From NCBI GenBank assembly GCA_023245355.1, contig JAHFKN010000003.1, forward strand, positions 57,368 to 121,367: 64,000 bases of DNA, in the 5' to 3' direction. The notes under the pieces are model-generated. The model was not told where the DNA came from. It saw only the letters and a program-made list of their open reading frames with translations, and did not search any database. Position 1 is the stretch's first letter. The number at the start of each line of letters is the position of its first letter. The position numbers and the translations under genes were made by a program. Shown in pieces: positions 3,054 to 61,628 of this stretch. Source of the DNA: Candidatus Gottesmanbacteria bacterium (lineage in GTDB: Bacteria; Patescibacteriota; Microgenomatia; UBA10105; UBA927).

Positions 3054-4151
3054 ATGGAAACTTCAGGTGGAAATGTGGGCAACCCAAAGAAAAATTTCAG
3101 GTTGATAATACAACTCTGGCTTGTATTTGAAGTTAGTGTTTTAGTTTTTCTTACTGATTTTGTCTATGTAATAGCGATAAAGAAAGTCTTGTTTAATGAG
3201 GCTCCAGATGTTTTCGGAATCGTTCTATTAGCATCTATGCTTGTAGGAGGATTATCTTTCTTTTTGGCAATAGTCCTCAGTCTGCTTAGAAAGCACTTTA
3301 GCGATAAGAAAATAACTTTTTCAAAAGTTTTATTGATACTACTGACGTTACCTGTGTTGCCATTTTACTTGTTCGTCTCGCATCTTCTTGATAAAAACAG
3401 AAAGCTTTTTCCAAGACTACTGAGTGGTTCTGTTTTGTTGGTTGTTTTATTTCCCTTTTGGATTTTGGGATATGTAGTTCTGTATTATGTTTCTACGGAT
3501 GAATTGTTTTTGGGTTCAAGATATCAAGTTTCGTCAATTGCATATTCCGATTCCATGATGCCTACCTTCAAACCAGGGTCAATTGGTAAGTATTATCCTT
3601 ACAAAAATATATTTTACAAATTAAATCCTAACTGGGCTTATAAGATTGAACGAGGAGACATTGTAAGGTTCAGTAGTGGGGTGACTCAAGATTATTTGAA
3701 TAAGGAGGGAAATATAGACTACCACAATTTTGTTAAGAGGGTTATTGCAATTGAGGGAGATAAAGTTGAACTCAGAGCAGGAGTGGTAATACTAAACAGT
3801 GAGCCATTATCAGAACCTTACACCCTTGAACCCAATTCAACTTTTGCCCTGGATGACGCATACAAGAATGCAAAATCGCAGGGTTTAAGTGGGCTGTTTT
3901 TGGATGAATGTAAAGCTATTGTAATTCCAGAGGGTAAGCTATTTGTACTAGGTGATAACAGAAAAAATAGCAATGACTCAAGAGTTATTGGTCTAGTTGA
4001 TTTGGCAGACATTAATGGGTACTTTCCGTACAAAGAACAGAAACAACCATTCAAAGAAGGAGTAAATGTTATTAATTACTCTGACCAATGGAGAACCTCA
4101 ACTGACCTAAATTCTTCAATTCTCCAGAAGGTTGAAAATTATTGTTTATAA
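3054..4151 (+). CDS. lepB: Signal peptidase I (S26 family) with a long polytopic N-terminal extension
   Basis: S26 boxes: SMMPTF (Ser box), VKRVIAIEGDKVEL (Lys box), GDNRKNSNDSR (box E). The N-terminal 160 aa have multiple TM helices. The gene is markedly AT-richer than its surroundings. Confidence 0.65.
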   Translation: METSGGNVGNPKKNFRLIIQLWLVFEVSVLVFLTDFVYVIAIKKVLFNEAPDVFGIVLLASMLVGGLSFFLAIVLSLLRKHFSDKKITFSKVLLILLTLPVLPFYLFVSHLLDKNRKLFPRLLSGSVLLVVLFPFWILGYVVLYYVSTDELFLGSRYQVSSIAYSDSMMPTFKPGSIGKYYPYKNIFYKLNPNWAYKIERGDIVRFSSGVTQDYLNKEGNIDYHNFVKRVIAIEGDKVELRAGVVILNSEPLSEPYTLEPNSTFALDDAYKNAKSQGLSGLFLDECKAIVIPEGKLFVLGDNRKNSNDSRVIGLVDLADINGYFPYKEQKQPFKEGVNVINYSDQWRTSTDLNSSILQKVENYCL

Positions 4152-4371
4152 CGAAGAAATACATATATGAAAATGTTACACGCAGGAAATAGAATCATTT
4201 TTAATGTTTTGTAATGAAGATCCGAAGCTGTTTGCCAGTTCGAGACCTGCCTTGCAAAGAGAACTTTTAAGATTTGTTATCTCGAACCTTATTTTGAGGG
4301 ATAAAAAGGTCAAATATACGCTCAAAACTCCATTTGATATAGTAGCCAAATACTCTCAAAGTGAGAATTAG

Positions 4372-4442
4372 CAGGCTCGGAGGGAATCGAACCCCCAATA
4401 GAGGTTTTGGAGACCCCTGGTATACCATTTACCTACGAGCCT
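4372..4442 (-). tRNA. tRNA-Trp (anticodon CCA)
   Basis: Cloverleaf folded by hand: acceptor AGGCTCG/CGAGCCT, D-stem GGTA/TACC, anticodon stem GGGGT/ACCTC with loop CTCCAAA, T-stem GGGGG/CCCTC with loop TTCGATT, discriminator G. No CCA encoded. Confidence 0.8.
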
Positions 4443-4450
4443 ATGATGAT

Positions 4451-4699
4451 CTATTTTATCAGCTTCAGACGTTTAATTAAACCTTGATAGGCGGATCCGT
4501 GTTGTTTCAGCTTGTGCTCCCGTACTGTTGCACTGATTTTATCACGGTATGCTTCGTAATATATGAGTTGGGGATGAATCATTTTTCTTGTTGTAAAGGT
4601 TTTGCCACTAATATGTTCGCGAATTCTACGTTTAAGATCGCTTGAGTATCCAATATATAGTGAGTGATTGTTGTCTTGAAGAAGGTATACGTAATACAT
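4451..4699 (-). CDS. GIY-YIG nuclease superfamily protein (YhbQ/UPF0213-like, 82 aa)
   Basis: MYYVYLL...LYIGYSSDLKRRIREH...YYEAY...REHKLK matches the GIY-YIG core and the YhbQ-like pattern. The ORF is wedged between the tRNA-Trp 5' end and a partial tRNA copy. Confidence 0.75.
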   Translation of the reverse strand: MYYVYLLQDNNHSLYIGYSSDLKRRIREHISGKTFTTRKMIHPQLIYYEAYRDKISATVREHKLKQHGSAYQGLIKRLKLIK

Positions 4700-4700
4700 G

Positions 4701-4751
4701 GGTATACCATTTACCCCGCCTTTCGCGAAAGGCTGGGTTTACCTACGAGCC
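4701..4751 (-). repeat. Partial duplicate of tRNA-Trp 5' end (positions 1-24) interrupted by a 24-nt palindrome flanked by TAAA direct repeats
   Basis: On the minus strand, AGGCTCGTAGGTAAA + CCCAGCCTTTCGCGAAAGGCGGGG + TAAATGGTATACC reproduces GGCTCGTAGGTAAATGGTATACC of the intact tRNA. The insert (plus 4714..4737) is a near-perfect palindrome around TTTCGCGAAA, with TTTA repeated at 4710..4713 and 4738..4741. Confidence 0.7.
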
Positions 4752-4812
4752 TAACTAAAGGGTATTGTAGCAATTTTCGGCCGGGAATGAAATTCCAAAT
4801 CCGAAGGAACGA

Positions 4813-24986: not shown

Positions 24987-25532
24987 TTACGGAAGCGGTA
25001 TTTCTTCCAGAAGTTCGTCGCCCTTTTCGTCTGTTGAGACCTGGAATAGTTTTTCCTGCTGTTCCAATACCCGTTGAGTAAAAAGAATACCGTTTACATG
25101 GTCCGTTTCGTGCTGGATGATCGTAGCCAGGAATCCTGAAAATTCTTCCTGATGTACGCAACCCGTTGCGTCCTGATACCGCAGGGTAAGCGAGGATGTG
25201 CGGCGGACTTTACCCCAGACGTTCGGTATGGACAGGCACCCTTCGAGTTTATTGCCGCGTTCAGGAACGCCGTCTGTCACTTCGTCGGATTTTTTGACAA
25301 TTTCCGGATTGATAAACACGCGGATTTTTGCCCGCTGGTTGGGTTTTGTGAGAAAAAGACGGATACTGACGCCAACCTGCGTTGCGGCTAAGCCGACACC
25401 TTTCGGGTTGACGGTTGCAAGCAGGGTTTCTTCCATTTCCGAGATGAGTTTTGCAAGTTTACCGTCAAATACGGTGACCGGGGATGCCGGGGTAGTGAGA
25501 ACAGAATTGGGAACATGCACGATAGGCTTCAT
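24987..25532 (-). CDS. def: Peptide deformylase
   Basis: GVGLAATQVG (motif 1), EGCLSIP (motif 2), QHETDHVNG (motif 3, HExxH). Confidence 0.8.
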   Translation of the reverse strand: MKPIVHVPNSVLTTPASPVTVFDGKLAKLISEMEETLLATVNPKGVGLAATQVGVSIRLFLTKPNQRAKIRVFINPEIVKKSDEVTDGVPERGNKLEGCLSIPNVWGKVRRTSSLTLRYQDATGCVHQEEFSGFLATIIQHETDHVNGILFTQRVLEQQEKLFQVSTDEKGDELLEEIPLP

Positions 25533-27778
25533 TTGACTTTCTCCGAAAAGTCCTTGTCATTGGGGTCGATATTCGTAAGATATTCCCTAAGGATTGCATT
25601 GGCTTCCGCAGGCTTTTTGGTTTCGGTGTAAAACACCCACAGCGCGTAATATGCGTCCCGGTATCCGGGTTTGAGCGATTTGGCTTTTTGTAGGTTTACG
25701 ATTGCCTGCGCTGAATCTCCTTCGCGACCCAACAGAATTGCAAGGTTATAGTAAATCTTCGGATCATTGGGAGAGAGCGACACGGCATATTTGAGTGTCT
25801 CTATGGCCTTTGCATTAAATGTCGGTTCAAGGGAGGAAAGCGTGTAGTATATTTTTGTCCGTGTTTTATAAAAATTGACATTTTTCGGAGACGTATTGAT
25901 TGCAGTAACACTTTCGCCGACAGAAAGAGCAGCCAGCTGGGCTGCCTGCGTGGCATTACTGCCTTCAAATGCGGCAACGGCAAGGGTGGCGTATGCGCTT
26001 CCGAGTTCATCGTGATAGGCAGGTTCGTTTTTATTGAGGCTGATAGCCTGAACAAATGCGGGGATTGCCTGACCGAATGAGCCGGACCGGACGAGGCGGT
26101 ATCCTTTGGCATACAGCGTATCTGCATACCAGAATGCCCCGATCCTCATGAGTAAGGAGATGCTGCCGATACAAAGAACCCAGATACTCCACCCCGGAAG
26201 ATTCATAGATTTTACATTGGTTCTGAGTTCCCGGCCGGAAAGCGCGACGCTGAATGCGGGGAACAGGAAAAGCACCAGTTGCATGACGACGACGGAAAAT
26301 CCGAAAAAGTTGGTAATCAGTACCGAAAACCATCCGGCAAACAATGCAGCCTGAAGAACGAATGTTGCAGCATCGTTCGATGCGGCGGTATTGTTGTTCT
26401 GCACCAGTTGTTTTCTGACAATTTTTATAAACCACCAGATGTAGGACGCGAGGAACAAAAGATAGCTACCGAGGCCGAATACCCCTGTAGTTGCCAGATA
26501 GTTGAGGTATTCGTTGTGCGCTTTATTATACAGGAAGTCCCATTCGCTTGTCTGGTTGTGGCCGACCGGCCGGTATTGGTAAAACGCGAATGCAAATGTT
26601 TCCGTACCGGTTCCGATGAGTTTTGTTTTCACTGTGCTTGCCCACGCGTTGATTGCCGCCTGCCACACGTATTTCCGGATCACGCCGGATTCCGTTCCTC
26701 CTACTTCAAGCGCCGGTCCCGTAGTTGCAGAGGGTGTCGCTTCTGCAGGTGCCGCCTGCTGCTTCGTGGTCAATGTGCGTACGGCGTTTTTCCACCCGGT
26801 GAATGTCACAAACCTGTCGATTGCCGGTGTTCCCGTGCCGTTTGCAAATACGATAAGAGCAAAAAGCAGGTGAAGGACAGCAACAGGTTTTACCTCCGGG
26901 AGGCGTTTAAGATGATCAAATGTTTTAACTCCGGTACCCGGTATAAGTGTAAGACACCAAAATACCGCGTCAGCGATGATAAATCCCAACAAGCCGGATC
27001 TGCTTCTGGTAAATAGCAGGACAGTAAACAGAAGGGTCGGCAGTACTGCATAGGCTGACATGAAAAACCAGCGGGTGCCGGTAGCTTTGTCCTGCTGCAT
27101 CCGTATGAGTCCAAGCGCCCAGGTGACGGGAATAAACGCGATGAGGTAGGCTGCCAGCCAGTTCGGTTGTCCGAGGGTGGAAAATACGCGGTTTTGGACG
27201 TCCTGTACCCATAGGTGTTTATCGATGCCCAGTCGCTCCAGCACGCCATAGAATGCGACTAAGGCAGCGGTAACCACCGCAGCCTTGAGAAGCGTAGGCA
27301 CAGACGTAAGGCGTAATGTGAGCACCGGCTTCTGTTTCAGCTTATTTTTTGCTGATTTGGCGGTTATCGGGGCCGTATCCCGTATTTCTTCCCTGTGTAT
27401 AAAGAGGTCTGCATTGTTTATGAATGCGTAGTAGAGCAGGACATACGAAATCACCGACCACAGCCCTCCGTTAAATCTGCTGTAGTACCCGAGCCAGCTT
27501 ACATGCGGATCAATCGAGAAAAGTGTGCTGACAAGCTGGGAAGTAGCAAAAAGCAGGATAGGGATGTCCAGGGGGGTGCGTTGTAAGCGGATTTCGCGCT
27601 GCCTGATCATTTTGACAAGCCAGCCCGTTGCCACAATCACGGTGATTCCGTACACCATCATCATTTTGTTGTACTCAAAGAGTTCGTAGTTCCAGGGGGT
27701 AAGAAGCAGGGGAACGAGGCTAAAAAGCAGGTAAAATCCTATTTTTATGCACGTGTTGCACAAGCTTATAAGCTTCAT
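25529..27778 (-). CDS. O-antigen ligase/Wzy-like polytopic membrane protein with C-terminal TPR repeats
   Basis: About 12 TM helices with a large periplasmic loop, then at least 4 TPR-like repeats (AYHDELGSAYATL..., KIYYNLAILLGREGDSAQA...). Confidence 0.5.
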   Translation of the reverse strand: MKLISLCNTCIKIGFYLLFSLVPLLLTPWNYELFEYNKMMMVYGITVIVATGWLVKMIRQREIRLQRTPLDIPILLFATSQLVSTLFSIDPHVSWLGYYSRFNGGLWSVISYVLLYYAFINNADLFIHREEIRDTAPITAKSAKNKLKQKPVLTLRLTSVPTLLKAAVVTAALVAFYGVLERLGIDKHLWVQDVQNRVFSTLGQPNWLAAYLIAFIPVTWALGLIRMQQDKATGTRWFFMSAYAVLPTLLFTVLLFTRSRSGLLGFIIADAVFWCLTLIPGTGVKTFDHLKRLPEVKPVAVLHLLFALIVFANGTGTPAIDRFVTFTGWKNAVRTLTTKQQAAPAEATPSATTGPALEVGGTESGVIRKYVWQAAINAWASTVKTKLIGTGTETFAFAFYQYRPVGHNQTSEWDFLYNKAHNEYLNYLATTGVFGLGSYLLFLASYIWWFIKIVRKQLVQNNNTAASNDAATFVLQAALFAGWFSVLITNFFGFSVVVMQLVLFLFPAFSVALSGRELRTNVKSMNLPGWSIWVLCIGSISLLMRIGAFWYADTLYAKGYRLVRSGSFGQAIPAFVQAISLNKNEPAYHDELGSAYATLAVAAFEGSNATQAAQLAALSVGESVTAINTSPKNVNFYKTRTKIYYTLSSLEPTFNAKAIETLKYAVSLSPNDPKIYYNLAILLGREGDSAQAIVNLQKAKSLKPGYRDAYYALWVFYTETKKPAEANAILREYLTNIDPNDKDFSEKVK

Positions 27779-28997
27779 GGCGGTAAGTATATCACGATTT
27801 TACGAAAAAATTGATCCGGCAAAGTATTTTTTCCGGGGCAGAAGTAGGGCTAATTAGCTTGACAAACATGGCCTTTTTATGTTATAGGATATGCTCCTGT
27901 CTATGAAAATTCAATATATCGCCGTTCCGCTGTCCTGCCGGCGAATCACGCGAGCCCTTAGCTGGGCTTCTTTGCGTTGGGTGCTTTGCGAGAGAATTCT
28001 TATTCTCGAGCTTAGCAGCCGAACGATCCCGCTGAAGCGCTCTTTGCGCCGTGTACGGATAGTACTGAAAAGGCGCAAAGCAAGCTTGTGCGGGAGGGTT
28101 GAGGGTAATTTTTGAGGTTGGTAAAGCTGGTTGAGGCTATTTGAGGCTGGCCCGCTGGGCGGGAGGACATGGAAAAACGTTGAAATATTAGGTTGATATT
28201 TGAGGCTAGGATTGTTGACTGGCTAGTTAACGATCCCGATCAGATCGGGAGAGTTTACGAGCCATCAATCCCGCTTCGCGGGACGGGAATTGAGATTCGA
28301 AGTTCGGGTAGCTAAGGAAAACATTGAAATAACAGGCTTGATGTTGAGGCTGGGATTGCGGGCTTTTGGACAGGGAGCCCGCAATTCTGGCCTAAATGAG
28401 GCTGGACCTTGCCCCTCCCTGTGAAGCAGGGCGAGGGTGAGGGTATTGTTCTGAGCTTAAGATGTGCCTGAGCAGCCTCCAATTGCGGAGGTATGTTTCC
28501 GGGTGTGTCTTTGAGCGCACATTAACAACTGAACGAAGGAAATAGATGAAGAGTTATAGATGAGTGGAGAGTGATTACGATTGAGTGAGCAACGCATGAT
28601 ACATGCTGCAATGCTGCTCATTTTTGGCAGGAAGTTTTTTACGTGCGTAGTTTCACAATAGAACTGAACAGAGGGAAGAATTGAAGCATTCTTTCTTGTG
28701 GTCAGTTCTATTGGGGAATTTAATGTAATGTAACAATTACCATCGATTGTTTTTTAATCGATATCGACTTTGGGGGAAATTTTAAGTCTAGTACTATCCC
28801 AACTCTGTATGTGTTTTTTTATAGACACTACAACCAAGTCACGCGGAATAAACACCGCAAACTCAAGATGTAATCCCGCAAGGGTCACATCTTAAACAAT
28901 TCCGTGTCAGCTCACGTTGGCATCGGAACTACCGCACAACCAATTCAGACAATCTTTACAGAACGTCTGTTGGAATCCAATTTATAGGAGCCAGATC
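27779..28997. other. 1.2-kb ORF-free, highly structured intergenic region (candidate origin of an integrated element and/or large ncRNA)
   Basis: No convincing ORF. Contains nested inverted repeats, hairpins cccgctgggcggg (28151..28163), cccgatcagatcggg (28235..28249), cccgcttcgcggg (28270..28282), gcgggc..gcccgc (28358..28382), and an AT-rich tract (about 28680..28870) with the palindromes aatcgatatcgatt and agaactgaac..ggtcagttct. Confidence 0.5.
28112..28403 (+). repeat. Iteron-like direct repeats: TTGAGGCT(R)G in six copies, plus a duplicated 45-nt segment
   Basis: TTGAGG(C/T)T at 28112, 28131, 28141, 28200, 28344 and 28397. The 45-nt units ggaaaaacgttgaaatattaggttgatatttgaggctaggattg (28171..28215) and ggaaaacattgaaataacaggcttgatgttgaggctgggattg (28316..28358) are about 80% identical. 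Confidence 0.55.
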
Positions 28998-29213
28998 ATG
29001 GCGAAGCAAGGTAAGAAAGGCAAGCAAGACGAGCAAGTTGTTGAAGTACCCGCCGAAGAGCACGTGGAAGGTGATAAACCGACCAGACGACCCAAAAAGG
29101 TCCCTGCTCAAGGCAAGCGTTTCCGCAGCGGTCCCAGAGAACATCGGGAAAGCCGGAGAAGCGGATTTCATCACTTGCTGAATGAAGGCGAGGAGGACGA
29201 ACAACTCTCGTAG
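28998..29213 (+). CDS. Small highly charged, probably disordered protein
   Basis: AGGAG SD 8 nt upstream of the ATG. 71 aa rich in K/E/R/Q. First gene of the GC-rich plus-strand block. Confidence 0.4.
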   Translation: MAKQGKKGKQDEQVVEVPAEEHVEGDKPTRRPKKVPAQGKRFRSGPREHRESRRSGFHHLLNEGEEDEQLS

Positions 29214-29234
29214 AGATACTTCATTTGCTTGTTA

Positions 29235-29262
29235 CCAGTCGGTCACTTATCGGTGACCGACT
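29235..29262 (+). terminator. Perfect 10-bp stem hairpin after the small charged-protein gene
   Basis: agtcggtcac-ttatc-ggtgaccgact followed by ttctcc. The T-run is weak, so it may be an attenuator or processing site. Confidence 0.3.
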
Positions 29263-29578
29263 TTCTCCTATTCCAGGCCGGTGAAATCACCGCGTCTGTT
29301 ACTTCCGGGACACTGACCGTGTACCCAAACCCATTCGGAATTCGTCCGGGTGGTCATGCCAAGAAAGGAGCGTGAGTTACAGAAGGTACCAAATCGTTTT
29401 TCTGATCGTGAAGTACGTTTAGAAAAGAAGTAGGTTGGATCTTAAGTATGTCTTTGTCATTCCGAAGCCTGGCTTTTGGCTGGGTCCTGGAAAAGTCGGA
29501 TGACGTTTGATTGACAGAACAGGTGAAGATTTGCTTCGACAATCAATTCGATTATGTACAAAAACAGGAGTGTGTATC

Positions 29579-29992
29579 ATGTCAGCAACTCGAAATGACC
29601 CGAAGAAAAAAGACGACAAGAAAGGTACGTCTCTGGCAAAATTGCTCGCAGGCAGTGAAGAGCCCGCGAAAAACGGTAATCACGACACTGGTAGCGGCGG
29701 CGGAAATCTCGTCGGCGCAATCGGCGCAGGGCTCGGTAAGTTTTTCGGCAATCTGCTTCCCGCAGGTTTTAAGAGCGCCAAACTCAAGGACACCGCTACG
29801 CAGGTTATCAAGACCCCGCTGGGCGGCAGTATCGTCGGCACCTATGTGTCCGAAATCGAAATTGAAGGCGCACCCGATATCATCAAGGCGATTGAAGAAG
29901 CCAAGGAAGCCACTGAGCAAGCGGCTATACTGGCTGACAAGGAAGTCGCCATGGCGAAAATCGAAGCCGGTAACGCAGACAAGGAGGAATAA
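29579..29992 (+). CDS. Hypothetical protein with glycine-zipper segment
   Basis: AGGAG SD. GNLVGAIGAGLGKFFGNLLPAG glycine zipper, acidic coiled-coil C-terminus. Confidence 0.45.
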   Translation: MSATRNDPKKKDDKKGTSLAKLLAGSEEPAKNGNHDTGSGGGNLVGAIGAGLGKFFGNLLPAGFKSAKLKDTATQVIKTPLGGSIVGTYVSEIEIEGAPDIIKAIEEAKEATEQAAILADKEVAMAKIEAGNADKEE

Positions 29993-29995
29993 ATA

Positions 29996-30751
29996 ATGAC
30001 CACCGAAACCACACAGCCGACGCGGCTGGATAAGATCCGTCCATTCATGGCATGGGTCGTCCTTCCCGCGATTCTGGCGATGGTGGCAGGAGTGTTCGTG
30101 AATTTCAAAGTGCCATGGCTCCGTCCCGGTGCCGTGGCCCTTTTGCTCCTGTCTGCCGTGCCGTTATGGCCCGTGATTACGGCTAAGCCCTCGAAAAAGG
30201 TTAACTGGGCTGGTTTCTTCTGGCTGGCTGTGCATGTCGTGCTGTTTGCGACTGCCGGTTATCTGGAATGGGACCATCTCAAGTGGCCCATCAGCCCGTG
30301 GCTTGGCTTTGGATCAATGGTTGTCATCTGGATTGGCGTCGTCGTCGCTATCTCGCAAATCAAAGTGCGAAGCGAAGGCGATTCACCGTCAGTCCGTCAT
30401 GTGACGCCAACCGTCTCTGATGGCGCTGTTAAGGTAACGAATAAGCTCGCCGCTAAACTCGGACTTCCCATCGGCAAAGAAGCCGAAGTCGATATGGGGA
30501 AATTTCTCCAACGTATGGAGATGGCGGCAGAGAACGAACGTCGGACACTCGACCTGGAAGAACGCAAGGAAGTACGCGCGATTCTTGAGTTTGGTCTCAA
30601 GCACCAGCTGATTGCCCCTGAGGAAATTAGTGCGCGAGTCCGGGCATTAGCAGGTATTACCAGTGTCGAAGAAGTTGTCGCTCCGCGTTCACCGCGCCGT
30701 CAACGCGATACCGGTTACGAAATTCCGCAACGATCGAAACGGAGGTTGTGA
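29996..30751 (+). CDS. Integral membrane protein (4 TM) with C-terminal coiled-coil/charged domain
   Basis: GGAGG SD. Overlaps the next gene by 4 nt (ATGA). Confidence 0.5.
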   Translation: MTTETTQPTRLDKIRPFMAWVVLPAILAMVAGVFVNFKVPWLRPGAVALLLLSAVPLWPVITAKPSKKVNWAGFFWLAVHVVLFATAGYLEWDHLKWPISPWLGFGSMVVIWIGVVVAISQIKVRSEGDSPSVRHVTPTVSDGAVKVTNKLAAKLGLPIGKEAEVDMGKFLQRMEMAAENERRTLDLEERKEVRAILEFGLKHQLIAPEEISARVRALAGITSVEEVVAPRSPRRQRDTGYEIPQRSKRRL

Positions 30752-31530
30752 TGGACAGTGGAACGATCACCACGATTGTGTTTGTCCTTTTGGGTTTGGG
30801 CGTGTTGGGCTTGGGACTTGCAATTCCGGGCAACTACAACGTTATCCGACCCAACGAGCGCGGTTTTACCTATGCGTTCGGTAAAGTAACGAGTCTCAGA
30901 GGCCCCGGCCCTACACTGACCTGGCCCTGGGAGAATCTGATTATCCGTCCCATCAACCAGCAAAAGGTTGATATTGAGTTGTCCCGCCTGACAACCGGCG
31001 CGCCTGATCCGATGGAGTTTGACCTGACCATGAGCGCGCTGATCCATGTCGCAGATGTGGAAAAGTCCGTCTTCGGGTTTCAGGGCAACTTCAAGCAGGC
31101 GCTGGACGATTTGGCACAAGGAGCGATGCAAGCCGCTTTGGTCCGTGTTGGTGGTAACGCACTGCTCGACAATACGCTCCCGCGTGTTCTTGAGCATGTA
31201 AGCGAAACCATCACCAAGCATGTGACTGAGAAATGGGGCATTGCCGTTGATGAGCTGGTTATTTCGGACATTGGACTGCCCCAAGTGCTCATTGACGCTA
31301 CTGCAATCCGTGCCAAGTCCAAGGCAGAAGCCGAGGCTCTTACGAACCTGTCCAAGGCAGAAGCCGAAAACTACGAGCGCGAACTCAAAGCGCAGGGACG
31401 TAACTATCGTTTCCATCAGCTCATGGACACCCTGGAGAAGATGGCCAAAGGCGGCGCATTCCGTGCTGTCGGCGACCTCAACTCCGTGCTGGGGATGGTT
31501 CTGGTGGATAACAAGGAGGATGCGGCATGA
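30748..31530 (+). CDS. SPFH/band-7 (stomatin/prohibitin/flotillin-like) domain protein
   Basis: N-terminal TM, then VIRPNERGFTYAFGKVTSLRGPGPTLTWPWENLIIRPINQQKVDIE typical of the SPFH fold. C-terminal coiled-coil (EAEALTNLSKAEAENYERELKAQ). Confidence 0.65.
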   Translation: MMDSGTITTIVFVLLGLGVLGLGLAIPGNYNVIRPNERGFTYAFGKVTSLRGPGPTLTWPWENLIIRPINQQKVDIELSRLTTGAPDPMEFDLTMSALIHVADVEKSVFGFQGNFKQALDDLAQGAMQAALVRVGGNALLDNTLPRVLEHVSETITKHVTEKWGIAVDELVISDIGLPQVLIDATAIRAKSKAEAEALTNLSKAEAENYERELKAQGRNYRFHQLMDTLEKMAKGGAFRAVGDLNSVLGMVLVDNKEDAA

Positions 31531-32057
31531 ACGCATGGTTTAACTATGCATTGGAACGGTTGTACGCCTGGCTTTTGCTGGCGCTTCAGCAGTTCCTGTC
31601 TCTCATCAGCATCTGCAAGAAATTGTGGTGGGGCGGGCTTATCTTAGCCGTCTACATCCTTATCGAGCAGGTGTTCGATGCGCCGGCGCTGTTTACTCTG
31701 ACAGCGGAAACGTACCAGTACCGAAAAGGCATTCTGACGCTTCTCATGTTGGCGTGGGTCTTGTTACTCACAAGCCATGTCCTCGTGCGTCAGGAATATG
31801 TCGTTGGTGACGAAGATAAGGCTATCGAGACGTTCAGTGGCAACGCGAATTGGATGAGCATTGTGTTCGCTCTCATCGCGACGCTGTTTTTCTGGATTCT
31901 CGGGACGCCGAAACTGACCCTCGTCATCCTCGGACCGTTACAGATCGTGCCTTTCTTTCTCGGAACTGACTACAAGGAGCAGGCTGACATGGAGTTGCCT
32001 CGGTTGATTAACCTCACCTTGGTCGCGCTGTCTGTCTGGATCGTTGCGTTCCAATAA
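31527..32057 (+). CDS. Integral membrane protein (4 TM)
   Basis: Translationally coupled (ATGA) to the SPFH gene. 176 aa. Confidence 0.5.
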   Translation: MNAWFNYALERLYAWLLLALQQFLSLISICKKLWWGGLILAVYILIEQVFDAPALFTLTAETYQYRKGILTLLMLAWVLLLTSHVLVRQEYVVGDEDKAIETFSGNANWMSIVFALIATLFFWILGTPKLTLVILGPLQIVPFFLGTDYKEQADMELPRLINLTLVALSVWIVAFQ

Positions 32058-32070
32058 AAAGGAGGATGAG

Positions 32071-32916
32071 ATGAAAATTCTCATCAAGTACGGTTGGATC
32101 ATCCTCCTTATGGGGGTGATATCTGCCTGCAGCACAGCGACTCCGATGAGTCCCGTGGAAGTGCAGATGACGAGCATGGCGGCTCAAGCACAGGCGTGTG
32201 CCACGCTTCAAGCGATCGGTACACCGTACCCTTGTAACCCGCCTACTGCGACTCTGCAACCCACGAGCACGCCGACACCGATGCCGTCACCGACTGCAAC
32301 CCCTTACACAGGGTGGAAACAGTTCACGGAAGATGGTTCGTATGTTGGTGATATGCCTCCCGGTTTCGAGCCGCCATGCGAAGGCGTCGTCGGGTGCCCC
32401 GGTAAGTTGTACATCCAGTATGTCAACGGGGTACCTGTTTCCGGTGATCAAGGCGGCACGACAGGCACACCTGGCTATTGGCCCTGGCTACTAGTTGGGA
32501 TCCCAGTCGCGCTCGCGTTTTTCCTGATTATCGGCATCGGCGTTCATGGCGCAACAGCACCGCAACGCGCGCTGGCTGAAAGCATCAAAATGACCGCAAA
32601 GGTTCAGGCAAAACTGCTCGAAATGTCCGGCTTGAAACAGCCCGCTTTACAAGCGCCAAAGGACGTACGGGCAGGTGACCTATGGGTTTACCTCCAGCGG
32701 TTCATTCAGGAATGTCATCCGGATCAGCGGTTTGAGACAACGATGCGGCATCACATGCGCGCATATCATCGTAAAGATGACTTGATCCCTCTGGAAACGA
32801 TGGCTGGTTGGGTACATGCGTTTGACCAAACCAACGAAACCAACGTGCTTGAGGCGTTCACAGCGTTTGCTGACCGGGCTGACTTCAATCATCAATTAGT
32901 AGAGAGGAGTTCGTGA
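32071..32916 (+). CDS. Lipoprotein with Thr/Pro-rich linker, a C-terminal TM segment and cytoplasmic tail
   Basis: AGGAGG SD, lipobox-like LMGVISAC, PTSTPTPMPSPTATP linker, a TM segment (LLVGIPVALAFFLIIGIGV). Start taken at the internal Met after the SD. Confidence 0.5.
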   Translation: MKILIKYGWIILLMGVISACSTATPMSPVEVQMTSMAAQAQACATLQAIGTPYPCNPPTATLQPTSTPTPMPSPTATPYTGWKQFTEDGSYVGDMPPGFEPPCEGVVGCPGKLYIQYVNGVPVSGDQGGTTGTPGYWPWLLVGIPVALAFFLIIGIGVHGATAPQRALAESIKMTAKVQAKLLEMSGLKQPALQAPKDVRAGDLWVYLQRFIQECHPDQRFETTMRHHMRAYHRKDDLIPLETMAGWVHAFDQTNETNVLEAFTAFADRADFNHQLVERSS

Positions 32917-56702: not shown

Positions 56703-56718
56703 GGCGTATTGTTTCCCC

Positions 56719-56748
56719 TTGACGCACGGATAAGAGCCAGCATATAAT
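56719..56748 (+). promoter_or_regulatory. Near-consensus sigma70-like promoter (TTGACG-N18-TATAAT)
   Basis: ttgacg at 56719..56724 and tataat at 56743..56748. Confidence 0.3.
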
Positions 56749-56799
56749 AAGGTTCAATGAGTGACTAAGAGCTGACCATTGGTGTATGGATAGCGATAT

Positions 56800-56824
56800 C
56801 CCGACCGAATGGTCGGGTTTTTTT
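56800..56824 (+). terminator. Rho-independent terminator
   Basis: cccgacc-gaat-ggtcggg followed by ttttttt. Confidence 0.65.
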
Positions 56825-57034
56825 GTCTTCATTGACCGGATTCTCGCAAATTTACATTTGGAATAAGAACAGCGGCTTTATTTTCACTTTACGAAATCGG
56901 GGGTAAACCCCGGGTCGCATCGGACGGAAGTCAAACGGTGACTTTTTCGAAATAGCCCTTTAACAATCGAATGGTGATAGGATTTTTTTTGATGTAAGCA
57001 GATTTTTGGTCAAACAAAAGTCCCTTATGTCAAT

Positions 57035-58544
<1,510 letters not shown>

Positions 58545-61188: not shown

Positions 61189-61393
61189 CAGGGGGCAGCG
61201 CATTGCGCGCCTGCGCATGGCACTTATACGGGGAGGAGCATCCGGAGTACAGATGCCGGAGGTTGACGGATATCCCGTGGCGACTGAACCGTTGCCGGGA
61301 ACCGTACGGACGACGCATGTCGATAGGCACAAACGAAGACAAACGGTTGATGTTTCCCTTGATGAGTAGAGAGAAGATCAGTGGTTCCTATGT

Positions 61394-61555
61394 GAGGCTT
61401 TGGAAGGTTGAGTCCACGAAATCCCGCTATGCGGGAGAATCGAGAATCCCTGGTAGCAATTTGAGCGTTTTATTGAGGCTTTGGAAGGTTGAGTCCACGA
61501 AATCCCGCTATGCGGGAGAATCGAGAATCCCTGGTAGCAATTTGAGCGTTTTATT
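61394..61555. repeat. 81-bp tandem direct repeat x2, tRNA-Cys-3'-end-derived, each with a CCCGCTATGCGGG hairpin
   Basis: Units 61394..61474 and 61475..61555 are identical. The third period (61556) is the tRNA-Cys 3' end itself (gaggctcggaagggaatcgaacc versus gaggctttggaaggttgagtcc). Confidence 0.8.
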
Positions 61556-61556
61556 G

Positions 61557-61628
61557 AGGCTCGGAAGGGAATCGAACCCTTGCATAGAAGTTTTGCAGAC
61601 TCCCGCGTTACCACTTCGCCACCGAGCC
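61557..61628 (-). tRNA. tRNA-Cys (anticodon GCA)
   Basis: Acceptor GGCTCGG/CCGAGCC, 3-bp D-stem, anticodon stem GGAGT/ACTTC with loop CTGCAAA, T-loop TTCGATT, discriminator U. No CCA encoded. Confidence 0.85.

Follow-up and report, generated by a model that had tools for sequence, protein, structure and literature searches.

The question addressed here is which function is served by an intergenic region of a Candidatus Gottesmanbacteria genome that is crowded with short direct repeats and small hairpins. The region covers positions 27779-28997 of the window, that is, of the complete stretch of 64,000 nucleotides (nt) from contig JAHFKN010000003.1 which was analysed. It is the gap between two divergent genes, one of 749 amino acids (aa) on the left (- strand, 25529-27778) and an open reading frame (ORF) of 71 aa on the right (+ strand). 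An earlier note had offered two answers, namely an iteron-type replication origin and a large structured RNA transcribed from a TTGACA promoter. Conservation among relatives, compensatory changes, a strand bias of G-U pairs and a conserved promoter support the second answer, a gene for a large structured RNA on the + strand. With a probability of roughly 0.7, we consider it a previously undescribed large structured RNA which has its own + strand promoter and is transcribed under boxA antitermination resembling that of ribosomal RNA (rRNA). The window version measures about 1.1 kb; in most relatives, the length is about 0.75-1 kb.

The left-hand gene codes for a wzy-like protein with Wzy_C and TPR domains (Pfam) and is followed by the genes of peptide deformylase and Met-tRNA formyltransferase (def/fmt). 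Using the wzy-like protein as a query against species-representative genomes, 67 loci were found (cited below by L numbers), most of which are labelled Candidatus Gottesmanbacteria, Microgenomates or Patescibacteria. Together with a bacterial 16S gene in the window, these labels identify the window as part of a chromosome from the candidate phyla radiation. In the closer relatives (54-96% protein identity), a gap of 0.7-1.3 kb lies upstream of the same gene. According to blastn and nhmmer, this gap is homologous to the window region, in the same orientation, in L007, L008, L010-L016, L028, L048, and L057, and more weakly in L009; altogether, the noncoding region precedes the wzy homologue in 13 species-representative genomes. 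A context-blind scan of metagenome contigs with a 26-mer of the most conserved motif, the core, added 10 further loci, 10/10 of them beside a wzy homologue; the same scan gave 0 matches in viral contigs. Searching with a profile of the core yielded a single copy at each locus, and also short matches in the more distant L036, L045, and L049. Three other assemblies hold identical copies of the window sequence, and L006 is a strain variant (84-89% identical) that spans the right-hand part, 28344-29300. The family thus comprises about 22 distinct sequences at the same place and in the same orientation, divergent from the Wzy_C-TPR/def/fmt cluster. In L036 (reverse complement of 3300-4800), the core is part of an RNA that is far shorter, at about 300 nt, and is followed by a small Cys-rich ORF; a pair of nucleotidyltransferase-like genes is inserted there between RNA and wzy.

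No protein-coding gene was detected in 27779-28997, as had been stated before. The longest ORF has 74 aa (27891-28115), lies mostly in a segment missing from the closest relatives, and no ORF is conserved. The earlier note had regarded an intact ORF conserved in relatives as evidence against its proposal, and none was seen: the peptide similarities between members are short and occur in all six frames, and the alignments contain indels of many lengths, which argues against a hidden or decayed gene. An alignment with relatives, which the same note had recommended for detecting compensatory mutations, gave a clear result. For the core domain (alignment A1, 18 sequences), RNAalifold proposed 37 pairs, 29 of them with compensatory changes. 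Of the cells in the pair counts, 92.4% are paired, compared to 45-53% after sliding the partners by 1-3 columns; the 29 pairs changed on both sides compare to 4-16 in these slid controls, and 0/500 shuffles matched the observed values. The helices hold 127 G-U but only 16 A-C pairs; on the opposite strand, pairing would thus be poor, and the RNA is read from the + strand. In agreement with this orientation, the fold of 27880-28520 has an energy of -273.5 kcal/mol (z = -7.4 relative to shuffles) on the + strand and of -196.3 kcal/mol (z = -6.0) on the - strand. Compensatory changes together with the lack of a conserved reading frame are the general hallmarks of a structured noncoding RNA, and we regard structure and conservation as solid.

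In the proposed transcript, a 5' domain with pyrimidine repeats and a terminator-like hairpin would be followed by optional hairpin modules, the helices P1-P3, the single-stranded core, a helix of 24-30 base pairs (bp), a 3' domain, the ORF of a small charged protein, and a terminal hairpin. The central features, 3' of the 5' domain, are:

27979-28111, + strand: lineage-specific insertion, missing from L007, L074 and all others; it includes a hairpin with 29-nt arms (28022-28100).
28098-28214, + strand: cluster of UGAGG(C/G/U)U repeats (28100, 28113, 28132, 28142, 28201).
28215-28317, + strand: optional module with the hairpin UGGCUAGUUAACGA-[CCCGAUC..GAUCGGG]-GAGAGUUUACGAGCCA (28220-28264), then CCCGCUUCGCGGG (28270-28282).
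28345-28393, + strand: helix P1 with 21 pairs, 14 of them changed on both sides, 96% of cells paired (RNAalifold, pair counts).
28387-28405, + strand: alternative small hairpin, CUGGCCU (28387-28393) with AGGCUGG (28399-28405); 7 pairs, 4 changed on both sides, 84% of cells paired.
28408-28441, + strand: covarying helix P2 with 13 pairs, 12 changed on both sides, 89% of cells paired.
28452-28516, + strand: long hairpin P3, apex CCUCC-AAUUGC-GGAGG (28476-28491), ending right before the core.
28517-28555, + strand: core, GCACAUUAACAACUGAACGAAGGAAAUAGAUGAAGAGU, whose first 12-19 nt are boxA-like; proposed NusB/S10 site.
28649-28720, + strand: long near-perfect hairpin of 27 bp in the lower-GC tract; -34 kcal/mol, z = -6.9.

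The helices are retained while their sequences change. For the P1 stem, GCGGGCU/AGCCCGC of the window is replaced by GUGUGUU/GACACAC in L011 and by GCGGAUC/GAUCCGC in L014; all three share the nearly invariant loop UUGGACAGG with GGACAGG at 28368-28374. The apex of P3 occurs as CCUCC/GGAGG, CCUC/GAGG, CUUC/GAAG, and CUCUC/GGGAG; its lower stem was deduced from single-sequence folds. Such folds were also used for the long hairpin, where MAFFT mis-registers two subgroups and RNAalifold support is weak as a consequence: in ten members, it has 24-30 bp and is alike in fold, with different arm sequences. This predicted hairpin has the size of an RNase III substrate.

The segment between 5' domain and P1 is the variable part. 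Besides its repeats, 28098-28214 holds the hairpin CCCGCUGGGCGGG (28151-28163) and the first copy of a 41-nt duplication; relatives have one or two copies of UUGAGGYUGG at the equivalent place. The optional module occurs in 0-2 copies, with one or two in L008, L010, L011, and L048, and none in L007 and L074. Its inner stem covaries (CCCGAUC/GAUCGGG versus UCAAAU/AUUUGA in L011 and L048). The module is ancestral and was lost from L007 and L074, the closest relatives. These differ from the window by indels of 133 nt and 103 nt, and among the members the distance between -10 box and core ranges from 304 to 634 nt, the window having the longest version. In sample SRR14366791 (L003, L005), the assembly breaks about 25-35 nt from both edges of the noncoding region. 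The breaks are probably due to variable module content and suggest co-existing strains that differ in their modules.

How do the repeats which had prompted the idea of an origin fit into this architecture? Exact matches to TTGAGGYTRG number 4 in the 64 kb, and each of them lies at 28112-28353 on the + strand; 0.46 are expected and 0/100 shuffles reach 4. Of the 21 window matches of the looser TGAGGBT, 8 fall at 28100-28444, all 8 on the + strand, and the six copies of TTGAGG(C/T)T(R)G reported before were about right. One copy, UGAGGCUGG (28345-28353), forms the base of P1 on its 5' side. A single strand, CUGGCCU (28387-28393), is complementary to two copies of TGAGGCUGG, one upstream and one downstream of it (UGAGGCUGG), and both alternative pairings are kept in relatives (96% and 84% of cells paired). 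Two direct repeats arise because both must match the one strand in the middle; we regard paired direct repeats around CUGGCCU as the signature of alternative pairings. The remaining copies belong to optional or lineage-specific modules, some of which are duplicated. For annotation, this example indicates that conserved strands of RNA helices can mimic the iterons of an origin.

Most other elements that had been described are present. Three CCCG-N-CGGG hairpins (28151-28163, 28235-28249, and 28270-28282) and GCGGGCU/AGCCCGC (28358-28382) were located, and the inverted repeat CTTTGCGCC/GGCGCAAAG belongs to the larger one with 29-nt arms at 28022-28100. The duplication is real (28174-28214 and 28318-28358), with 41 nt instead of the 45 nt claimed, a spacing of 144 nt (claimed: about 145 nt) and an identity of 76% (claimed: about 80%). 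The AT-rich tract exists at 28600-28850; however, it is mild (33-39% GC versus about 49% for the window) and consists of conserved hairpins with covarying arms.

The clustered short direct repeats and the lower-GC tract are what this region shares with an origin of a theta-type plasmid, a phage or a chromosome, in which an iteron array would adjoin an AT-rich unwinding element. Iteron-containing theta origins such as those of the replicons pSC101, R6K, and P1 have regularly phased iterons of 17-22 bp, a Rep protein encoded nearby and usually DnaA boxes. Here, iteron length, phasing, Rep gene and DnaA boxes all differ from that layout: the repeats comprise 8-10 nt (TGAGGYTGG), are spaced irregularly by 10-145 nt, lie on one strand and are located within covarying helices rich in G-U pairs; there is no match to the DnaA box TTWTNCACA within 27779-28997; and no Rep gene is nearby, as Pfam identified Wzy_C plus TPR, peptide deformylase and formyltransferase on the left and one Band_7 protein on the right, where the 71-aa ORF and another four had no match. 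A search of plasmids and phages by blastn gave no match, and the chromosomal synteny is fixed across the clade. The GC-skew analysis that had been suggested revealed no switch either; skew is positive throughout the 64 kb and the cumulative curve climbs monotonically. Since the lower-GC tract, too, is made of hairpins kept through compensatory changes, we consider an origin hardly credible.

The core is the most conserved part of the RNA. The stretch GCACAUUAACAA(G/C)UGAAYGAAGGAAA (28517-28542) is almost unchanged across all members, stays unpaired in the consensus fold of RNAalifold, and is placed directly 3' of helix P3 on the + strand, like the promoter and the G-U bias. Within the family, core positions 3 and 5 vary, the others are nearly invariant. 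A comparison with the leader of the 16S rRNA gene in the same window, which starts at 57035, showed that 28517-28535 (GCACAUUAACAACUGAACG) matches this leader at 15/19 positions. The leader carries GCCCTTTAACAATCGAATG at 56955, and GCNCNTTAACAANNGAANG occurs exactly twice in the 64 kb, in the RNA core and in the 16S leader (56955), both times on the transcribed strand. Relative to the gamma-proteobacterial boxA consensus GYTCTTTAANA (PMC5725501), also written GCUCUUUAACAA, the window core GCACATTAACA agrees at 9/11 positions, the 16S-leader copy GCCCTTTAACA (56955-56965) at 10/11, and GCTCTTTAACA of the distant member L045 at 11/11. In a plain local alignment, the region resembles the 16S leader no better than shuffled sequences do; the similarity is confined to the boxA stretch. 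The element boxA recruits NusB/S10 and other Nus factors; it precedes 16S rRNA, CRISPR arrays and other long untranslated RNAs, in which it counters Rho termination and aids folding (PMC7862264, PMC5725501, PMC4807359). We propose that the core is a boxA element, because an RNA that is structured, untranslated and about 1 kb long is just what would need antitermination. This link is a good, testable lead, deduced from sequence, position and analogy.

According to this model, the core boxA would bring NusB/S10 and the remaining Nus factors to RNA polymerase, in the way known from rRNA operons. Antitermination would let about 0.5 kb more of folded untranslated RNA be made without Rho termination, and the Nus complex could help the RNA to fold during synthesis. 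The transcript may be processed at the long helix (28649-28720), and the mature RNA would most likely act alone or within a ribonucleoprotein, of which the product of the adjacent small ORF might be a part.

Two other explanations of the core were discarded. A micro-ORF (AAGGAAAUAGAUG..., MKSYR) loses its AUG and frame in L014, L012, and L028, and in L011, L015, and L082 hairpins are inserted between its Shine-Dalgarno-like and AUG parts. The core can pair with UUUUGCGUU, located 3' of the 5' hairpin, in part of the members, but not in L014 and L076. The 16S leader itself (56718-57035) has a near-consensus promoter, TTGACG-N18-TATAAT, at about 56720-56749, small hairpins, one of which is followed by a U-run, and its boxA GCCCTTTAACA some 80 nt upstream of the 16S gene. 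Downstream of the latter, the window contains no 23S gene, and the rRNA genes thus appear to be unlinked.

The combination of a boxA-like motif and a strong promoter, features of an rRNA leader, could also be a relic, either of a gene that has decayed or of an rRNA-operon leader padded with repeats, which would be functionless and kept by inertia. Module content that varies even among close strains and the assembly breaks at the region edges in the one sample fit this idea. Compensatory changes show, however, that pairing is under selection, no single reading frame is conserved, and outside the boxA stretch the alignment with the 16S leader is no better than with shuffled sequences. A relic is thus very improbable.

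The start of the transcription unit is defined by these features:

27785-27795, - strand: probable -10 element of the divergent wzy-like gene, TGATATACT, a few bases before the ATG at 27778.
27859-27888, + strand: sigma-70-type promoter of the RNA, TTGACA (27859-27864), 18-nt spacer ending in TG, and TATAGG (27883-27888).
27894-27978, + strand: conserved 5' domain (nhmmer and blastn conservation) with two hairpins, both predicted from alignment A3.

The promoter-like site noticed earlier was recovered and is conserved. Across the alignments, it has the form TTGAC(A)-N17/18-TG-T-TATAGGATAT, and TTGAC...TATGYTATAGGATAT is kept in nearly all relatives; a strict promoter scan of the window did not list the site 27859-27888. 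Transcription would start at about 27894-27897. On the wzy side, AAGTATAnCAT is kept in all aligned relatives; the segment 27785-27795 is probably the -10 element of the wzy-like gene, lies outside the RNA and marks its left boundary. The position of this extended -10 element, TGATATACT, so near the ATG would imply a leaderless or nearly leaderless message of the wzy-like gene.

The 5' domain starts with CCUGUCU at 27896-27902. Its first hairpin, P0, pairs CGCCG (27920-27924) with CGGCG (27939-27943), and the invariant CUGUCCUGCC covers loop and 3' strand. The second is a terminator-like hairpin, GAGCCC (27952-27957) with GGGCUU (27964-27969), followed by CUUUGCGUU; 27952-27969 was listed by the terminator scan. 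In 12 aligned members, the hairpin at 27952-27978 is kept with stems AGCCC/GGGCU or CCCC/GGGG, then U4-7. This conserved hairpin with its U-run could be an attenuator.

A further property of the 5' domain is its direct repeats CTGTC(C/T)/CTGCC just 3' of the promoter (27896-27943 in the window; also L014, L075, L076, L011, and L012). In the first 170 nt of 19 members, 74 copies of CUGUCY/CUGCC were counted, whereas 4.7 are expected; every member except L057 has 2-7 copies within about 100 nt of the RNA start. The first copy is at the inferred 5' end, and one pair is at the P0 hairpin (loop and 3' strand). The motifs could pair with the invariant P1 loop GGACAGG, to which they are complementary; this suggests a long-range or intermolecular contact of GGACAGG with CCUGUCC, both sides of which are nearly invariant. 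The repeats may also be a C-rich Rho loading site, protein-binding repeats, or DNA operators.

The last of these can be extended to the whole region, which would then be regulatory DNA: operators for a response regulator of the OmpR/PhoB type or another repressor, and otherwise spacer. The motif CTGTC presumably resembles a Pho-box half-site, and in L014 seven CTGTC copies are spaced by 11, 11, 12, 9, 8, and 10 nt, i.e. 8-12 nt and close to 11. In most members, however, the spacing is irregular, and several copies are located in conserved hairpin loops. Operators would account for at most the first 100 nt, not for 0.7-1 kb of covarying helices with G-U pairs, and we judge this explanation improbable.

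Downstream of the long hairpin, the unit continues as follows:

28742-28842, + strand: conserved 3' domain with the hairpin AUCGAUUG..AAUCGAU (28742-28763), a hairpin with U-rich loop, and AACCAAGUCAC.
28843-28898, + strand: insertion of close relatives, hairpin AAGAUGU..ACAUCUU; near-identical only in L074/L080 and L082, with a diverged counterpart in L007.
28899-28997, + strand: conserved segment up to the ribosome-binding site (RBS) of the small ORF, hairpins UGUCAGC/GUUGGCA and CAGAC/GUCUG; AGGAG at 28987-28991.
28998-29213, + strand: small ORF of 71 aa with basic N-terminus, acidic C-terminus and a good AGGAG RBS.
29237-29262, + strand: terminal hairpin AGUCGGUCAC-UUAU-GGUGACCGACU, then UUCUCCUAUU; -18 kcal/mol, z = -5.3.

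In the 3' domain, GACUU/AAGUC together with UGGGGGA...UAUCCCA is a possible pseudoknot; the domain is conserved in the closer relatives, and its putative pairings were read from the sequence. The element AAUCCAnUUUAnAGGAG of the segment 28899-28997 is kept also in the L048/L012 group. Homologues of the small protein follow the RNA in L008, L011, L013, and L074, and variants in L048, L012, L028, L081, L075, and L077; L010/L083 keep the RNA and miss the ORF. The 71-aa protein has no Pfam match, and only 3-4 related clusters, all without names, were found in big protein libraries. The terminal hairpin follows the small ORF also in L007, L074, L008, and L011; it is absent from the terminator-scan list and is probably the end of the transcription unit. 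Genes further downstream vary between relatives.

Several points weigh against the interpretation as an antiterminated RNA with a function of its own. The family is narrow, with its about 22 distinct sequences stemming from one clade. Its members are related, and kinship alone can beat a shuffle control, although the slid-partner control argues otherwise here. The window core deviates from the gamma-proteobacterial boxA consensus at 2/11 positions. Moreover, 330-630 nt separate it from the promoter, and most of the structured 5' half is transcribed earlier; therefore, it can neither protect this half nor help polymerase past the terminator-like hairpin at 27952-27978. Finally, the conserved sequence runs up to the RBS of the small ORF in most members, which makes a very long regulatory leader a live alternative.

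Such a cis-acting 5' leader would use its 5' domain, its terminator-like hairpin and the alternative pairings of UGAGGCUGG with CUGGCCU to sense a signal, and would thereby set transcription or translation of the small charged-protein gene. The hairpin with U-run that nearly all members have 60-170 nt 3' of the start, two mutually exclusive and conserved pairings, conservation extending into the RBS, and a small charged ORF following in most members are all in line with this mechanism. On the other hand, L010/L083 keep the RNA without the ORF, and the short, distant form in L036 precedes the unrelated Cys-rich ORF. No known riboswitch or leader family in Rfam matches the window, the region or the loci of ten relatives, the RBS is not obviously sequestered in the folds, and 0.75-1.1 kb would be exceptional for the leader of a protein of about 70 aa. 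A regulatory leader is therefore unlikely, if by no means far-fetched. The cases of L010/L083 and L036 and the variable downstream genes speak for a function of the RNA itself rather than for a leader only.

For this RNA, a more far-reaching and tentative proposal can be made, to which we give somewhat less than even odds. It would be a new class of large ornate RNA of the Gottesmanbacteria lineage, made with the help of boxA and Nus factors, which acts as a stand-alone ribonucleoprotein or is self-assembling. GGACAGG/CCUGUCC would be a possible assembly contact, and the small protein a partner rather than the regulated product.

The RNA does not belong to a known family. Covariance models of Rfam 15, including OLE, GOLLD, ROOL, HEARO, raiA, RNase P, transfer-messenger RNA (tmRNA), signal recognition particle RNA, 6S, and group I/II introns, gave no match in the region at the gathering score; the earlier note's candidates GOLLD, ROOL, HEARO, and OLE are among these. 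At E-values up to 10, only chance-level matches to microRNAs, small nucleolar RNAs and long noncoding RNAs appeared (E >= 0.2), none of the Rfam riboswitch families matched, and the Rfam scan of the loci of ten relatives found nothing. ARAGORN detected neither transfer RNA (tRNA) nor tmRNA in the region. In the searchable literature, we found no description of a large structured RNA from Gottesmanbacteria or from the candidate phyla radiation (CPR)/Patescibacteria.

Comparisons with known systems nevertheless are instructive. With the leader of an rRNA operon, which is bound by NusB, NusE/S10, NusA, NusG, and SuhB, the RNA shares a strong promoter, a hairpin followed by single-stranded GCnCnUUAACAA, a long folded untranslated RNA downstream, a helix of RNase III size, and the 15/19 match to its own 16S boxA. 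In contrast, no rRNA follows here, a small protein gene usually ends the unit, and the boxA-like element is preceded by several conserved helices and is not near the 5' end. The boxA elements of CRISPR arrays and of the suhB leader, which control Rho termination, are likewise found in non-rRNA transcripts that are untranslated or poorly translated (PMC7862264, PMC5725501). Those transcripts, however, have no ornate conserved structures, and the suhB boxA lies near the start codon and represses expression.

A further system for comparison is OLE (ornate, large, extremophilic) RNA. Its locus presumably includes oapA next to the RNA gene, and a gene of a possible partner adjoins here as well. OLE RNA, with its proteins OapA/B/C, is also large (about 600 nt), has many conserved helices and invariant single-stranded stretches, and is restricted to one bacterial group (PMC9723947, PMC10898510). 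The differences are the missing match to the Rfam model, the other phylum, a companion that is a small, soluble-looking charged protein and not a membrane protein, and the RNA's own promoter and boxA-like core. GOLLD, ROOL, HEARO, and raiA resemble the RNA in size class, ornate secondary structure and their biochemical role, which is unknown; the present locus matches none of their covariance models and lacks a prophage or mobile-element context, in line with the 0 viral-contig matches. The RNA is most like a boxA-protected untranslated transcript (rRNA leader) on the one hand and the ornate large RNAs (OLE) on the other, and is a member of neither group.

To our knowledge, the large structured RNAs of bacteria fall into no more than about a dozen known classes, and each of those we are aware of is either a central machine or a still open puzzle. 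CPR/Patescibacteria have tiny genomes and unusual ribosomes. The retention of 0.75-1.1 kb of conserved folded RNA by organisms with about 1 Mb of genome implies that its role is important. From the boxA-like core, one would predict that a structured RNA outside the ribosome is served by the Nus antitermination machinery; if true, this would extend the non-rRNA boxA targets beyond the few known ones (suhB, CRISPR arrays).

The genes downstream of the small ORF had been described as a foreign block, which was not borne out. At 29579-32916, they code for proteins of 137, 251, 260 (Band_7/SPFH), 176, and about 281-290 aa and are somewhat richer in GC (54-55%); no Pfam family besides Band_7 was recognized in them. 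The relatives compared were L007, L012, L014, L038, and L042; distant homologues occupy the same position in several, namely L007, L012, and L014 among them.

In L008, L010, L011, L013, and L016, a conserved hairpin GTCGC-..ACAGAAAGGAGGTGCCA..ATG..-GCGAC encloses the RBS and the start of a lipoprotein-like gene (about 290-330 aa) and lies about 150-250 nt upstream of it. In the window, a related sequence, GAGTTACAGAAGGTACCAAATCG, is found at about 29370-29400. This RBS-enclosing hairpin could be a translational control element.

A tandem repeat of 81-nt units (61393-61568; 2.2 copies at 97% match) borders on a tRNA gene (- strand, 61557-61628). Each unit starts with TGAGGCT, which is the tRNA 3' end in reverse complement, and carries CCCGCTATGCGGGAG, resembling TTGAGGCTGGCCCGCTGGGCGGGAG at 28141-28165. 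The repeat may consist of duplicated pieces of the tRNA end or represent a small repeat family.

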